Below are positions 59,474 to 64,000 of a stretch of DNA of 64,000 bases, piece after piece. How positions within the stretch are numbered: position 1 is the stretch's first letter; every line of letters starts with the position of its first letter. The notes under the pieces were generated by a model. The model was not told the origin of the DNA. It worked only from the letters and a program-made list of their open reading frames with translations, and made no database searches. Source of the stretch: Thermodesulfobacteriota bacterium (GTDB taxonomy: Bacteria; Desulfobacterota_D; UBA1144; Nemesobacterales; Nemesobacteraceae); NCBI GenBank assembly GCA_965204795.1, contig OZ242012.1:206650-270649 (forward strand), read 5' to 3'. The position numbers and the translations under genes were made by a program.

Positions 59474-60285
59474 GAAAGACGTGTTTCATAGGAGCGGGAA
59501 ACATGGCGGAGGCCCTCGTGAGGGGTCTTCTGGCCTCGGGGCGCTTCGGGAAAAAGGACATGGCGGTCTGCGACGTGAATCCCGGGAGGCTTTCGCTGTT
59601 TTCTTCCGAGTACGGAATCGCGGGCGACGGGGACGCGAGAAGCGTCGTCGCCGCCTCCGACGTCGTGGTCTTCTGCGTCAAGCCCGGGGTCGTTCCGGCG
59701 GTCTGCCGGCGGATACGGCCCGCCGCGGGAAAGAAGAAGCTCTACGTCTCCATAGCCGCCGGTGTGAGGATGTCTTCCGTTCTTCGGCTTCTGGGAGAGG
59801 GAACGAAGCTCGCGCGGGTCATGCCCAACGCCCCCGCCCTTTCGCTTTCGGGAGCGTCGTGCGTGTGCTTCGGCGAGGGGCTTTCCGCCGGGGAGGAGGA
59901 TTTCGTGCTCGGCATGTTCGGGTGCCTTGGAAAGGCGTTTCGGGTGGAGAGCGAGGAACTGATGGACGCCGTCACGGGTCTCGGCGGAAGCGGTCCCGCG
60001 TTCGTCGCGACGTTCGTCGAGGCCCTTTGCGACGGAGGGGTGAAGGCGGGGCTCGGGCGGGAGCTATCGCTCGCCCTTGCCCTGCAGACGGTTCTCGGAA
60101 CCTCGAGGATGATTCTCGAAAGCGGAGCGCACCCGGCCGAGATAAGGGACATGGTCGCCTCTCCGGGGGGGACCACCATGAGCGGAATGCATTCGCTCGA
60201 GCGGGGAGGATTCCGCGCCGCGGTGATGTCCGCCGTGGAGTCGGCGGCGCTTCGCTCCGCGGAACTTTCCGCGGGGGAGGACTGA
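59470..60285 (+). CDS. proC: pyrroline-5-carboxylate reductase
   Basis: ATG overlaps the yggS stop. Rossmann motif CFIGAGNMAEAL. C-terminal dimerisation-domain motifs are present. Confidence 0.88.
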   Translation: MRKTCFIGAGNMAEALVRGLLASGRFGKKDMAVCDVNPGRLSLFSSEYGIAGDGDARSVVAASDVVVFCVKPGVVPAVCRRIRPAAGKKKLYVSIAAGVRMSSVLRLLGEGTKLARVMPNAPALSLSGASCVCFGEGLSAGEEDFVLGMFGCLGKAFRVESEELMDAVTGLGGSGPAFVATFVEALCDGGVKAGLGRELSLALALQTVLGTSRMILESGAHPAEIRDMVASPGGTTMSGMHSLERGGFRAAVMSAVESAALRSAELSAGED

Positions 60286-60287
60286 CG

Positions 60288-60587
60288 ATGGACGTACTTG
60301 GAGGAAACTTCATCAGGGCCGCGGCCGAAGCGTTGAACATTCTGCTGTCGGTCTACATATGGCTGATAGTGGGAAGGGCGGTGATCTCGTGGGTGAGTCC
60401 CGATCCCTACAATCCGATCGTTAGGTTTCTCTACTCGGCCACCGAACCCGTGCTGGGCTTCGCGAGAAAGCGCCTGCCGCCCCTGGGCGGAACGCTCGAC
60501 CTGAGCCCCGTGGTGGTCCTGGTCCTGATAATCTTCGTGAAGCGCGCGGTCGTGACCTCGCTCGTTCAGCTGGCCTCGGGACTCTGA
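60288..60587 (+). CDS. yggT: YggT-family membrane protein
   Basis: 99 aa with two TM helices (LNILLSVYIWLIVGRAVISWV and SPVVVLVLIIFVKRAVV). The yggS-proC-yggT order is conserved. Confidence 0.8.
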   Translation: MDVLGGNFIRAAAEALNILLSVYIWLIVGRAVISWVSPDPYNPIVRFLYSATEPVLGFARKRLPPLGGTLDLSPVVVLVLIIFVKRAVVTSLVQLASGL

Positions 60588-60861
60588 ACCGCGTTCCTCG
60601 CTTCCGCCGCCGCCCGGAAGATTGACGCGCGGATATTCTTCAATCATGCCGGAGAACCGGAGCCGGCCGCGGCGCGTTCTGGTTCCCCGGGCGCGGGCCG
60701 TCGCGTCCGCGGGACGCGGAAGCCGGTGTCGGCGTATATTTCCGGGGAGGGGGGAGTCTTGACGAGCCGGTCGGTCGGGGATAGTCTTTTCCCTGTACGG
60801 ACGAGAAGGAATTATCGAGGAGCCCCGGCCCGGATTCGACCGGAGCGCGGGCGCGAGAGAA

Positions 60862-63800
60862 ATGAACGACCTCGGACGCAAGGAAAACCCGCATGATACC
60901 CCCCCCCCCCTATTTCGTTCCGGTAGAGCGGGGCTTTCCCGCTTTTCCGCGCGGGCGTTCCTGCTGATACTGGTTCTGGCCGGAGCGCTTTTTCCCGCGC
61001 AGCGGATTTTCTCCCAGACGGCTCCGAACCCGTCGGTGTGGAAAGACGGGATTACCCAGGGGGCCGATTCTACGCTTATCGATACCGAGTTTCTTTTCGC
61101 CGTCCAGACGCCCCAGACCGTCGTTTTTCGCCGGACCAACGTTCGTGAAGCGTGGCAGTATATTGCGATCCACGCCTGCGGAGACACGAAGGTGAAGCCC
61201 CCGAACCCGGCGCAAAGCATCCCGAGCAACTTCAGCAACTGCTCGCTGCTGATCAGCGGCGTCCCCACCGGCAGCCTCGAGTATACGAGGTCCTTCACTC
61301 CGACCGCGGCCATGATCGCAAACGGCGGGGTCGTGTTCGCGTTCCGCGCGATAGGCCAGCAGAGACCGGCGTTTCTGGTGAAGTGGGTTCCGGTGGTCGG
61401 CGCGGCGATAACCTCGACGAATCCCGTCTCCCTGTCGGAGTCGAACATAGACGGCGCGACGGTTACGGTGAAGATCGGCACGAGTTACGCGGCGGCCGGG
61501 AGCCTGGACAAAAACGACTTCGAACTCGCCAGGGCTCCCGCGGGAGTGACCGTAAGCTCGGCCGAGAGAAAAAGCGCGACCGAGGCGGTGCTGACGCTCG
61601 CTTACGACGACGGGAGCGATTTCGACGCGGCGGCGAAGCTAAGCGTCAGGGTGAAGGCGTCGGGACATTCGGGCTCGGGCGATTTTACGTCGGGGGAGGT
61701 GGACGTGGCCGCGGTGGTGGAGACGAGGCCTGCCCGTCCGACGGGACTTACGGCGACGGCGGCGAACCTGAGCGCGGTTCTCGGGTGGACGGACCCTTCG
61801 GACGCGACGATAACGGGCTGGGAGTACCGTCGCAAGCTTGCGAGCGCTTCGAACTACGGTCCCTGGACGCCGATGACCGGAAGCGGGGCGGCGACCGCCT
61901 CTTACACGGTGGGCGGGCTCAGCAACGATCTCGCTTACGATTTCCAGGTAAGGGCGGTGAACTCGCGGGCGCCGACGGAAGCGTCGCCGGCCAGCGCGAA
62001 GGCTTCGGCGACGCCGGTTGCGGCCGCGGCACCGACTTCCACGGAGTGGAGATACGGCCAGAATATCCAGCATTTCTGTCATAATGCGGTGTTCTACAGC
62101 GTACCGACGACGTCGCTTCTGCCCTCCGCGACCCCGCAGACCGTCACGTTCCACCTTAGACAAGTAATCGTCCGCTTCACCTGGCCGAGCCTTGAGCTTT
62201 ACGCGTGTCCCTGGACGTCGGCCACTCCGGCGGGCGATACGTCCGTCCGCCCGACCGGCTGCCAGAAACTGAAGGACCTCTGGGCAACCAGCAACTCCAG
62301 GGACTGGTCGGTCAATTTCACTCCGACGCAGGCGATGATAAGCAACGGCGGGGCGGTGATGCTCTCGTACTGCTTCAACTCGGGATTCCATGCTGCCAGA
62401 CGGATTATGCACACCAAGTGGGTGCCCATGACCGACGGCGCGTCGATAACGGGCACCGGCCCGGCGACGCTGGGGGAGGGGAACCTAAACGCCGCGACGG
62501 TCACGGTGGACCTTACCGGCCTCACCTTCCTGGCGGGAGTGGCGGCGGGAGACTTCGAGCTTTCGGGAGTTCCCGCGGGGGTGACCGTTTCGGTGCAGTC
62601 GGCCACGCGCCTCGCGGCCACCGACCAGGCCAGGCTCACGCTGTCTTACGGAGGGGAGGACTACGACTCGGATTTTTCGCTGGAGATAAAGGCCAAGGCG
62701 AGCGGACACACGGGCTCGGCCGACCTCCTAGCGGGGACGGTCCTGGTGGCCGCGACGGAGGAGACGGCCGCGATAACGGCCCAGAGCGCGGACCCCCTGA
62801 CGGAGGCGAACGTGGGCGGCGCCACGGTTACGGTTACGCTTTCGGGGGAGACCTACGTCACGTCGGGTTTCGGCAAGGAAGATTTCGAGCTCGCGAGCGC
62901 GCCTTCGGGCGTGACGATAAGCACGGCCGCGAGGAGTTCGGCGACGGCGGCTGTGCTCACGCTCGCTTACGACAGCACGGATTTCGATTCGGACGCGAAA
63001 CTGGGCGTGCGGGTTCTCGCGGCCGGCCACTCGGGGCCGGAGAACCTCGAGACCGGGGAGATAGACGTGGAGGCGGTAGTGGAGGCTCTGTCGGCTCCGA
63101 CGGGTTTTTCCGCGCTCGCGGGAGACGGCCGGGCGGGGCTCAGCTGGACCGACCCGAACAACGCGGCGATAGAGGGCTACGAGTACCAGAGGAGGAATTC
63201 GGGCGACGGCTGGCCGGGAACGTGGACGGCGATTCCGGGGAGCGGGGCCGGGACGACTTCGTACACGGTGACGGGTCTTTCGAACAACCAGGCGTACGAT
63301 TTTAGGATAAGGTCGACCAGCTCGAAGGCGACGGCGTCCGCGGCGAGCGCCGCGGCGTCGGCCACGCCTTCGGCCATGTCGGCGGCGATAACTTCGCAGA
63401 GCGTTGACCCCCTCACGGAGACGAACGTGGGCGGCGCCACGGTTACCGTGACGCTCACGGGCACGACGTACGCGGCGGCGGGGAGTTTCGACAAGGACGA
63501 TTTCGCTCTCGCTAGCGCGCCGCCCGGGGTGACGATAGGCACGGCGGCCAGAAGTTCGGCGACGGCGGCGGTGCTGACGCTCGCTTACGACGGCACGGAT
63601 TTCGACGCGACCGAGCAGATCGGGGTGCGGGTCAAGGCGTCGGGGCACTCGGGCGCGGGGGATCTCGAGACCGGGGAGATAGACGTGAACGCGGTCGTGG
63701 AGGAGGCTCCCGGGAAGCCTTCGGGCCTGAGGGCGGAGCCCAGGGACAGTCACGTGGTGCTGAAGTGGAACGACCCGGGGGATTCGACGATAACGGGCTA

Positions 63801-64000
63801 CCAGTACCGCGCGTTCTACGACGGCGAAAGCAGCTGGCGGGCCTGGGCGGCGATTTCGGGGAGCGGGGCGACCACCACGCAGTTCACGCAGAATCTCTAC
63901 TCGAACGCGAGGGGCGTGAGATACCAGATAAGGGCTTTGCGGGCCAAGGCCCCTCCGTCCGCGGCGAGCGTCGAGGTGCACGCCCATCCCGCCGCCGTCT
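60862..64000 (+). CDS. very large secreted repeat-module surface protein with fibronectin-type-III domains (3' end beyond window)
   Basis: Open frame from ATG 60862 to the window end, with no stops, over 1045 codons. The predicted signal peptide is ...RAFLLILVLAGALFPAQR. Two paralogous roughly 150-aa Cys-pair domains are present. There are at least four roughly 105-aa repeat modules (..DPLTE.NVGGATVTVTL.G.TY...G.F.K.DFEL..AP.GVTI..A.RSSATAAVLTLAYD..DFD...K.GVRV.A.GHSG...L..GEIDV.AVVE), each followed by an FN3 domain (..L.GWTDP.D..I.GYEYR......W.....SG..TTSYTV.GLSN..AYDF.IRA). It is absent from the ORF track because no stop lies in the window. Confidence 0.8.
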   Translation, partial: MNDLGRKENPHDTPPPLFRSGRAGLSRFSARAFLLILVLAGALFPAQRIFSQTAPNPSVWKDGITQGADSTLIDTEFLFAVQTPQTVVFRRTNVREAWQYIAIHACGDTKVKPPNPAQSIPSNFSNCSLLISGVPTGSLEYTRSFTPTAAMIANGGVVFAFRAIGQQRPAFLVKWVPVVGAAITSTNPVSLSESNIDGATVTVKIGTSYAAAGSLDKNDFELARAPAGVTVSSAERKSATEAVLTLAYDDGSDFDAAAKLSVRVKASGHSGSGDFTSGEVDVAAVVETRPARPTGLTATAANLSAVLGWTDPSDATITGWEYRRKLASASNYGPWTPMTGSGAATASYTVGGLSNDLAYDFQVRAVNSRAPTEASPASAKASATPVAAAAPTSTEWRYGQNIQHFCHNAVFYSVPTTSLLPSATPQTVTFHLRQVIVRFTWPSLELYACPWTSATPAGDTSVRPTGCQKLKDLWATSNSRDWSVNFTPTQAMISNGGAVMLSYCFNSGFHAARRIMHTKWVPMTDGASITGTGPATLGEGNLNAATVTVDLTGLTFLAGVAAGDFELSGVPAGVTVSVQSATRLAATDQARLTLSYGGEDYDSDFSLEIKAKASGHTGSADLLAGTVLVAATEETAAITAQSADPLTEANVGGATVTVTLSGETYVTSGFGKEDFELASAPSGVTISTAARSSATAAVLTLAYDSTDFDSDAKLGVRVLAAGHSGPENLETGEIDVEAVVEALSAPTGFSALAGDGRAGLSWTDPNNAAIEGYEYQRRNSGDGWPGTWTAIPGSGAGTTSYTVTGLSNNQAYDFRIRSTSSKATASAASAAASATPSAMSAAITSQSVDPLTETNVGGATVTVTLTGTTYAAAGSFDKDDFALASAPPGVTIGTAARSSATAAVLTLAYDGTDFDATEQIGVRVKASGHSGAGDLETGEIDVNAVVEEAPGKPSGLRAEPRDSHVVLKWNDPGDSTITGYQYRAFYDGESSWRAWAAISGSGATTTQFTQNLYSNARGVRYQIRALRAKAPPSAASVEVHAHPAAV
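60899..60910 (+). repeat. homopolymeric tract C12 inside the 5' coding region of the large surface-protein gene (candidate slipped-strand phase-variation site)
   Basis: Twelve consecutive C at 60899-60910. In the current state it encodes T-P-P-P-L, in frame with ATG 60862. With 13 C, the ATG at 60893, which has an AAGGAAA RBS 6 nt upstream, comes into frame instead. Confidence 0.9.
61440..63720 (+). repeat. divergent intragenic coding repeats (about 300-nt module units alternating with FN3 units) within the surface-protein gene
   Basis: Recurring nucleotide blocks such as acggtcacggtg / acggttacggt(g/t)ac(g)ct and gtgctgacgctcgcttacgacg occur at roughly 61450/61590, 62500/62640, 62810/62950 and 63420/63560. 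Confidence 0.75.

Follow-up and report, generated by a model that had tools for sequence, protein, structure and literature searches.

The stretch of DNA analysed here (the window: 64,000 nucleotides of contig OZ242012.1) ends inside a very large gene, of which it contains the first 3.1 kb (positions 60862-64000, + strand). The gene encodes a string of independently folding β-sandwich domains of three kinds, termed A, M, and FN3, and its product starts with a long Sec-type signal peptide (SP). Homologs suggest that the gene probably encodes a giant autotransporter adhesin, with a C-terminal barrel predicted from their sequences. Its expression is probably switched stochastically by slipped-strand phase variation at a run of 12 cytosines (C12) within the 5' coding region. 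In combination, a phase-variable giant autotransporter adhesin or fibre, with its N-terminal part in the window, appears rather likely. The newest elements of this proposal are the putative poly-C switch, conserved across a family of paralogous surface proteins, and the unusual autotransporter passenger.

The open reading frame (ORF) runs for 1,046 codons without a stop and continues past the end of the window. ATG 60862 is the first start candidate 3' of the in-frame stop at 60760-60762, while the next one, GTG 61036, is located past the signal peptide. The GC content at third codon positions (GC3, 0.82) is well above that at first and second positions (GC1, 0.59; GC2, 0.57; window, 61.5% GC), which indicates that the ORF is really coding. 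A sigma-70 promoter scan upstream of the gene gave no match. Piecewise BLASTP comparisons yielded the domain order SP-A1-M1-FN3-1-A2-M2-M3-FN3-2-M4-FN3-3, with the following features (HMM, hidden Markov model; aa, amino acids; nt, nucleotides):

60862..64000, + strand: 5' part of the giant surface-protein gene, 1,046 codons without a stop
60862..61017, + strand: long signal-peptide region, aa 1-52, from hydropathy; N-extension kept in homologs
60899..60910, + strand: C12 homopolymer, codons 13-17 (T-P-P-P-L), candidate slipped-strand switch
61018..61404, + strand: A1 domain, aa 53-181, predicted immunoglobulin (Ig)-like β-sandwich with an invariant Cys pair
61405..61725, + strand: M1 module, aa 182-288, HMM E=7e-36; 48-63% identity with the other M copies
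61726..62019, + strand: FN3-1, aa 289-386, paralogous to FN3-2 and FN3-3; HMM match
62020..62427, + strand: A2 domain, aa 387-522, from BLASTP, HMM, and alignment with A copies
62428..62763, + strand: M2 module, aa 523-634, with M3 directly after it
62764..63087, + strand: M3 module, aa 635-742, 74% aa and 81% nt identity with M4
63088..63375, + strand: FN3-2, aa 743-838, holding the best Pfam fn3 stretch (aa 744-822)
63376..63705, + strand: M4 module, aa 839-948, the copy used for the structure model
63706..64000, + strand: FN3-3, aa 949-1046, from BLASTP and HMM; reaches the window end

In these comparisons, A1 and A2 are 31% identical (E=2e-12), the pairs among M1-M4 38-74% (E=1e-11 to 6e-36), and the pairs among FN3-1 to FN3-3 39-53% (E ~1e-20 to 1e-24). 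The M-FN3 unit repeats also at the DNA level with a period of 615-621 nt, and this period, together with the nucleotide identity of M3 and M4, indicates tandem duplication. Pfam fn3 (PF00041) was matched in two stretches with 66 bits against a cut-off of 25. The Pfam scan of the 1,046 residues gave no family besides fn3, the NCBIfam scan of the same residues gave no match, and the rest of the 64-kb window, searched in six frames, holds no further A, M, or FN3 domain.

An initial annotation, made from the letters of the window, had described a giant modular exported protein that extends beyond the window and carries a signal peptide; both statements agree with the long stop-free ORF, its GC3 value, and the signal-peptide-like hydropathy of the N-terminus. 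Of the M modules, of which it had counted at least four, four were recovered, together with three FN3 domains. It had placed an FN3 domain after each module, which is correct for M1, M3, and M4, but not for M2. The two domains with Cys pairs are indeed paralogous, and the pair is invariant, but they span about 130-140 rather than about 150 residues.

The signal-peptide region (aa 1-52) consists of a charged N-extension (...HDTPPPLFRSGRAGLSRFSAR), a hydrophobic core (AFLLILVLAGALF), and a final part reading ...AQRIFSQ. Kyte-Doolittle windows exceed 2 across aa 28-47, and the core comprises 13 residues; by hydropathy, such a core behind a charged n-region corresponds to the Sec signal peptide of type Va autotransporters. 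The N-extension is conserved in the related proteins P0121, P0118, and P0387, and the signal-peptide region of P0121 is almost identical to that of the window gene.

The three closest full-length homologs comprise 5,633-7,178 aa. P0118 (5,703 aa) aligns collinearly with the complete window protein of 1,046 residues (46% identity) and shares its domain order, the architecture [54]AMFAMMFMFMFM... of P0118 matching the extended A-M-FN3 order of the window; P0116 (7,178 aa) and P0121 (5,633 aa) share 49-58% identity over parts of the window protein. More M-FN3 units follow beyond the window-like region of these homologs. Residues ~2200-4600 of P0118 form about 24 tandem 116-aa repeats rich in Thr, Ser, and Asp, which are 80-96% identical to each other and give no significant Pfam match. 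Expansion and contraction of this uniform block by recombination are likely.

The last 800 aa of the homologs contain a Calx-beta domain (E=7e-21) and the autotransporter domain PF03797, with no RTX (HemolysinCabind) match. P0118 terminates in ...TIQGRLNW; the homologs finish with ...GRLNW, i.e., with a terminal Trp residue. This C-terminal region of P0118 is common to P0116 (96% identity), P0121 (77%), and 17 other proteins among the best 150 with M, so that 20 of the 150 terminate in the same barrel family. Eight of nine members of the family match PF03797 (best E=2e-13) and two of nine match TIGR01414, while the C-terminal 400 aa of P0118 score 26.7 bits against PF03797 (cut-off 26). The barrel is present in all three homologs that have the extended architecture of the window (P0118, P0116, and P0121). 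These profile matches identify the closest full-length relatives as type Va autotransporters whose passenger is made of β-sandwich domains. Because they end in Calx-beta and a type Va barrel, the window gene is probably a giant autotransporter adhesin. The N-terminus of type Va proteins is the end farthest from the membrane, from which we infer that the A-M-FN3 region would constitute the distal tip of the fibre.

The C12 tract, which the initial annotation did not mention, exceeds every other homopolymer in the window, since these have at most 8 bases; about 0.02 runs like C12 are expected by chance. The tract lies 5' of the sequence encoding the hydrophobic core of the signal peptide. When the length of the tract was varied in a simulation, C9, C12, and C15 kept the ORF open, and other lengths led to a stop after 20-35 aa. 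The gene thus shows a hallmark of contingency loci: its reading frame depends on the length of a long homopolymer within the 5' part of the coding region. A second hallmark, tract-length polymorphism with both in-frame and out-of-frame states, was found among copies sharing the tract motif CATGATA-C(n) (read as CAT GAT A-C(n)), where 'in frame' means that the upstream ATG and the gene body share one reading frame:

Window: C12, in frame
L085 (P0388): C9, out of frame
L083 (P0250): C11, out of frame
L084 (P0387): C13, in frame
L001, minus-strand copy: C10, out of frame
L001, plus-strand copy: C6T6, out of frame

The three paralogs P0388, P0250, and P0387 share at least 90% identity and are encoded on one 760-kb contig, with identical tract flanks; P0118 and P0121 encode ...DTPPL... 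at the tract position. In the out-of-frame paralogs the gene body is intact and the gene callers used internal starts, which explains the different lengths of the paralogs (1,126, 1,170, and 1,221 aa). The conserved position, the variable length, the occurrence of both frame states, and the intact body together constitute the signature of slipped-strand phase variation.

According to the proposed mechanism, the protein would be exported by the Sec pathway into the periplasm, where its C-terminal barrel would insert into the outer membrane. The very long β-sandwich stalk would then be displayed, and its distal tip, formed by the N-terminal A-M-FN3 region, would contact the ligand. With C12 the gene is in frame, and any gain or loss of bases that is not a multiple of three would end translation before the signal peptide is complete.

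Several points weigh against a phase-variable autotransporter. The window ends before the C-terminus of the gene, and the barrel is predicted from homologs with 46-58% identity. Smaller paralogs with the same SP-A-M head possess a heparinase II/III-like domain and no detected barrel; therefore, the head cassette does not dictate the tail. We know of no type Va protein of such size and build. Classical type Va passengers are β-helices, not strings of Ig and FN3 domains; although the β-helix is typical rather than obligatory, the passenger region in the window is modelled as β-sandwich domains. The signal peptide was called from hydropathy and visual inspection. Tract lengths were taken from assembled contigs, and their differences between assemblies and paralogs may partly be homopolymer miscalls, especially in long-read assemblies. 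Finally, a scan of JGI metagenomes for CATGATA-C9+...TTTC returned 11 hits, all in low-GC loci that are unrelated and lack A, M, and FN3.

The last two points bear on the most serious alternative, in which the gene encodes the same giant surface protein and the tract is no functional switch: in a genome rich in GC, the cytosines would merely encode prolines, and the differences in length would stem from errors of sequencing or assembly or from decay. Long-read assemblies are prone to errors in homopolymers, the JGI scan yielded no further members of the family, and seven other G/C runs of at least 9 bases occur in 259 kb of related loci, so such tracts are not specific to the family. However, the tract is kept at the same motif in divergent orthologs and paralogs even though the flanks diverge, and its occurrence by chance in the window is improbable. 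Furthermore, the two-base steps (9, 11, and 13) among near-identical paralogs on one contig of 25x coverage are hard to explain as consensus errors, and out-of-frame alleles with an intact body, rescued by internal starts, have the appearance of a phase-OFF state. We regard a non-functional tract as the less probable explanation, though one with a substantial share of the probability.

Another alternative dispenses with the barrel: the window gene might encode a secreted or otherwise anchored multidomain protein (e.g., one with an enzymatic body of the polysaccharide-lyase type, as in P0387) or a protein using another export route. The P0387 gene (L084 6001-9666) and its paralogs share the poly-C/SP/A/M head with the window gene. 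Residues 640-819 of P0387 correspond to a Heparinase II/III-like C-terminal domain (Heparinase_II_III_C-like, 24.7 bits against a cut-off of 24), and neither an FN3/M array nor a barrel was detected in P0387 and its paralogs. As P0250, P0387, and P0388 all continue from this head into a heparinase-like body, and as the C-terminus of the window gene lies outside the sequence seen, the same could apply to the latter. In contrast to these short paralogs, the window protein continues as FN3-A-M-M-FN3-M-FN3, exactly as P0118 does, and each homologous protein with this extended architecture carries the barrel. A protein without a barrel therefore appears unlikely, slightly more so than a tract without function. 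The P0387-type paralogs themselves may be surface-displayed or secreted glycosaminoglycan lyases, as suggested by the domain match. Transposase genes adjoin several of the genes with A-M heads.

On the reading of the window gene as a switched autotransporter, a broader proposal can be put forward tentatively, with a chance just short of even. Uncultured Dadabacteria, possibly sponge symbionts, might possess a paralogous family of surface proteins and secreted ones whose members share the poly-C/SP/A/M head and differ in their bodies, which would be either autotransporters of 5,600-7,200 aa with Ig/FN3 passengers or heparinase-like enzymes, each of them independently phase-variable.

The M module has a common fold and a new sequence. 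An AlphaFold2 model of M4, based on a 60-sequence alignment, shows a seven-strand Ig-like β-sandwich (predicted local distance difference test, pLDDT, 96.9; predicted template modelling score, pTM, 0.88). At the level of sequence, M has no relative in PDB, where a profile search gave nothing at E<0.05. Likewise, 60 diverse copies of M showed no consistent match to Pfam: three of the 60 matched Big_5 (best E=0.0056), and one matched TIG. With the families Big_1-5, Big_12/13, Cadherin, TIG, and SWM_repeat, the M copies thus share the Ig-like fold class only. The conserved acidic residues of M include E14 and those of DGTDFD. Foldseek with the M model returned no PDB match at E<=1e-3; the nearest solved structures are the Ig-like domains of the cell-surface chitinase ChiW (PDB 5gzu and 5gzt), followed by the adhesin FdeC and, more weakly, by S-layer Ig domains (SbsC and Sap). 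The statement of the initial annotation that M matches no curated family accordingly stands after the Pfam, NCBIfam, and PDB profile searches. The matches to Big or Cadherin-like families that it had named as a counter-indication are absent at the sequence level, while at the fold level M is ordinary Ig-like. Based on the model, M is a new sequence family with the common Ig-like fold and not a new fold.

When 1.84 billion cluster representatives were scanned exhaustively with HMMER, M was detected in 932 representative proteins of up to 7,362 aa at E<=1e-3, and in 186 at E<=1e-30. The best 150 of the 932 contain a median of 6 and a maximum of 28 copies of M, arranged in pure tandem arrays or alternating with other domains of about 105 aa. 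Among these 150, 36 comprise at least 3,000 aa, and many have classical signal peptides. The A domain is rare: in the same scan it was found only in P0116, P0118, P0121, P0246, and P0250. Its Cys pair is invariant in nine of nine copies from any source, including the partial copy of L001, and an alignment of eight copies reveals twelve invariant positions, among them the Cys pair, one early Trp, and an I..GG.V...W motif. The model of A is of moderate confidence (pLDDT 77.7 and pTM 0.76); in the models, both M and A are ordinary Ig-like sandwiches at the fold level. M and A are not diverged copies of one domain, a relationship ruled out by an hhalign probability of 0.1%.

Searches with the whole protein returned 113 hits, all driven by FN3 and none containing M or A. 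Word-indexed searches, restricted to FN3-free alignments and to a database that seems to omit very long proteins from its results, yielded one 339-aa fragment (P0114) and 38 short unnamed fragments, and a contig scan of genomes with the M4-FN3 region found no relative. The FN3 copies of the window most resemble, with a per-domain identity of up to 57%, the long FN3 arrays of proteins from metagenome-assembled genomes (MAGs) of other phyla, among them one under the name Candidatus Poriferisocius and further ones assigned to Alphaproteobacteria and Gemmatimonadota. By sequence, this similarity hints at an FN3 subtype that is shared or laterally exchanged across phyla.

The initial annotation had suggested an adhesin or an S-layer-like fibre; its first part agrees with the barrel-bearing homologs of 5.6-7.2 thousand residues and their tandem β-sandwich arrays, but for the second no S-layer anchor was found, and the homologs are anchored by a barrel. 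An S-layer protein would be in line with the weaker structural neighbours of M (SbsC and Sap), and a decaying pseudogene with the related L001 copy, which is truncated and frameshifted beside an IS110 element. However, the Pfam and NCBIfam scans of the 1,046 residues detected no SLH domain or other S-layer anchor, the homologs are far bigger than S-layer proteins, and a frame that stays open for 1,046 codons, together with a strong GC3 signal, argues against a pseudogene. Either explanation is thus very improbable.

Comparison with known systems places the predicted protein close to several of them. It resembles classical type Va adhesins in its Sec signal peptide with a long N-extension, in its presumed surface display, and in the C-terminal PF03797/TIGR01414 barrel, which is seen in the closest full-length homologs. 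It differs from them in its passenger, a string of Ig-like and FN3 β-sandwich domains instead of a β-helix. It would also exceed typical type Va proteins several-fold in size (5,600-7,200 aa predicted), with the barrel observed in homologs only. NalP and MspA from Neisseria are phase-variable autotransporters with poly-C tracts in their coding regions. The window gene would be like them in that a homopolymer in the 5' coding region sets the reading frame. Inverse autotransporters (intimin, invasin, and FdeC) likewise carry tandem Ig-like passenger domains on an outer-membrane barrel; their barrel, however, is N-terminal, whereas in the window the passenger follows at once after the signal peptide, and the barrel of the homologs is C-terminal. 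The Ig-like domains of ChiW from Paenibacillus are 18% identical to M, i.e., there is no relationship at the sequence level, and their context differs, ChiW being an SLH-anchored Gram-positive enzyme.

LapA, SiiE, and MpIBP share with the predicted protein a very long stalk of tandem β-sandwich domains, domains of the Calx-beta type, and a presumed distal ligand-binding region; they possess a C-terminal signal for RTX/type I secretion (T1SS) and no Sec signal peptide, whereas the window gene encodes an N-terminal signal peptide and its homologs end in a barrel. A T1SS-exported RTX-type adhesin of the LapA/SiiE/MpIBP kind, to which the very large size, the tandem Ig-like repeats, and the Calx-beta domains of the homologs would be suited, is the least probable of the alternatives, since T1SS substrates lack a signal peptide of the Sec type, the last 800 residues of the homologs give an autotransporter barrel and no RTX match, and no T1SS genes occur in the 15 kb upstream.

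The predicted protein also resembles FN3/cadherin attachment proteins from sponge MAGs, which are FN3-rich, secreted, and encoded in lineages including Dadabacteria (Robbins et al. 2021, PMC8163846). That study is a catalogue of Pfam domains, in which the M and A domains, an autotransporter anchor, and a homopolymer switch are not described. Within the library searched, no paper was found that deals with phase variation by homopolymers among sponge symbionts or with autotransporters of Dadabacteria.

Giant β-sandwich adhesins and phase-variable autotransporters are both already well known. M, in turn, is a confidently folding family that occurs in about 900 representative proteins, of which many are giant, and is absent from Pfam and NCBIfam; a definition of this family would help to annotate many giant metagenomic genes now called 'hypothetical'. 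A type Va barrel with an Ig-like/FN3 passenger of about 5,000 aa, if true, would stretch present ideas on autotransporter export. A conserved poly-C tract at the head of several paralogous surface genes suggests stochastic, pathogen-like surface variation in an uncultivated and possibly host-associated lineage. If confirmed, the locus would combine contingency loci of the pathogen style in such a lineage with an unusually large, non-β-helical type Va architecture partly built from M.

The source organism is, as judged from gene order, an uncultured member of Candidatus Dadabacteria, because the block upstream of the giant gene (Lon, radical-SAM, MurA/EPSP-family, PrmC, YggS, and YGGT) is fully syntenic in 13 MAGs of Candidatus Dadabacteria/Thermodesulfobacteriota, with 57-89% aa identity. 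The giant gene after YGGT is absent in all 13 syntenic MAGs, and no A, M, or FN3 domain was found within 10 kb of YGGT in 20 related loci; thus, the gene is a lineage-specific addition at this site. The A-M proteins (P0250 and its paralogs) probably belong to close relatives of the window organism. Phyla associated with sponges typically include Dadabacteria, and MAGs from sponges show an enrichment of genes with FN3 and cadherin domains (PMC8163846). A sponge origin is possible for the lineage. The source contig comprises only 2.09 Mb. Its GC content (61.5% in the window) can be compared with that of L005, L006, and L015 (~51%), the three of the 13 syntenic loci for which the value was computed.

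L001 1-3500 is the only close relative in the word-indexed database and represents a rearranged locus with an IS110 transposase upstream. Its plus-strand copy is frameshifted and comprises SP-A-M-FN3 and the start of A2; a second copy on the minus strand (SP-FN3-A) is convergent and runs into the first. From its sequence, the arrangement arose either by genuine decay and rearrangement or as a chimera of the assembly. Synteny with the window was ruled out by the different flanks, the IS110 element, and the two convergent truncated copies.

Further homopolymers were observed elsewhere. On the 760-kb contig with the A-M paralogs, C10/G10 tracts (L083 7123-7132 and L084 13954-13963) are located ~95 and ~200 nt upstream of two SWM_repeat/Beta_helix surface-protein genes and, by their position, may be switches within promoters. 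The seven G/C runs in the related Dadabacteria loci lie at L015 4013-4022, 5713-5722, and 17004-17016, L005 278-286 and 529-538, L004 14572, and L007 15323. L015 contains one C13, plus two tracts within an insertion of ~5 kb between PrmC and YggS.

Upstream of the giant gene, most of the long ORF listed at 59481-60587 does not code in that frame. Another small gene, in a different frame, probably lies within the ~800 bp that separate YggS from YGGT, and the real YGGT gene occupies 60288-60587 (99 aa), starting with an ATG preceded by a GGAGG ribosome-binding site.

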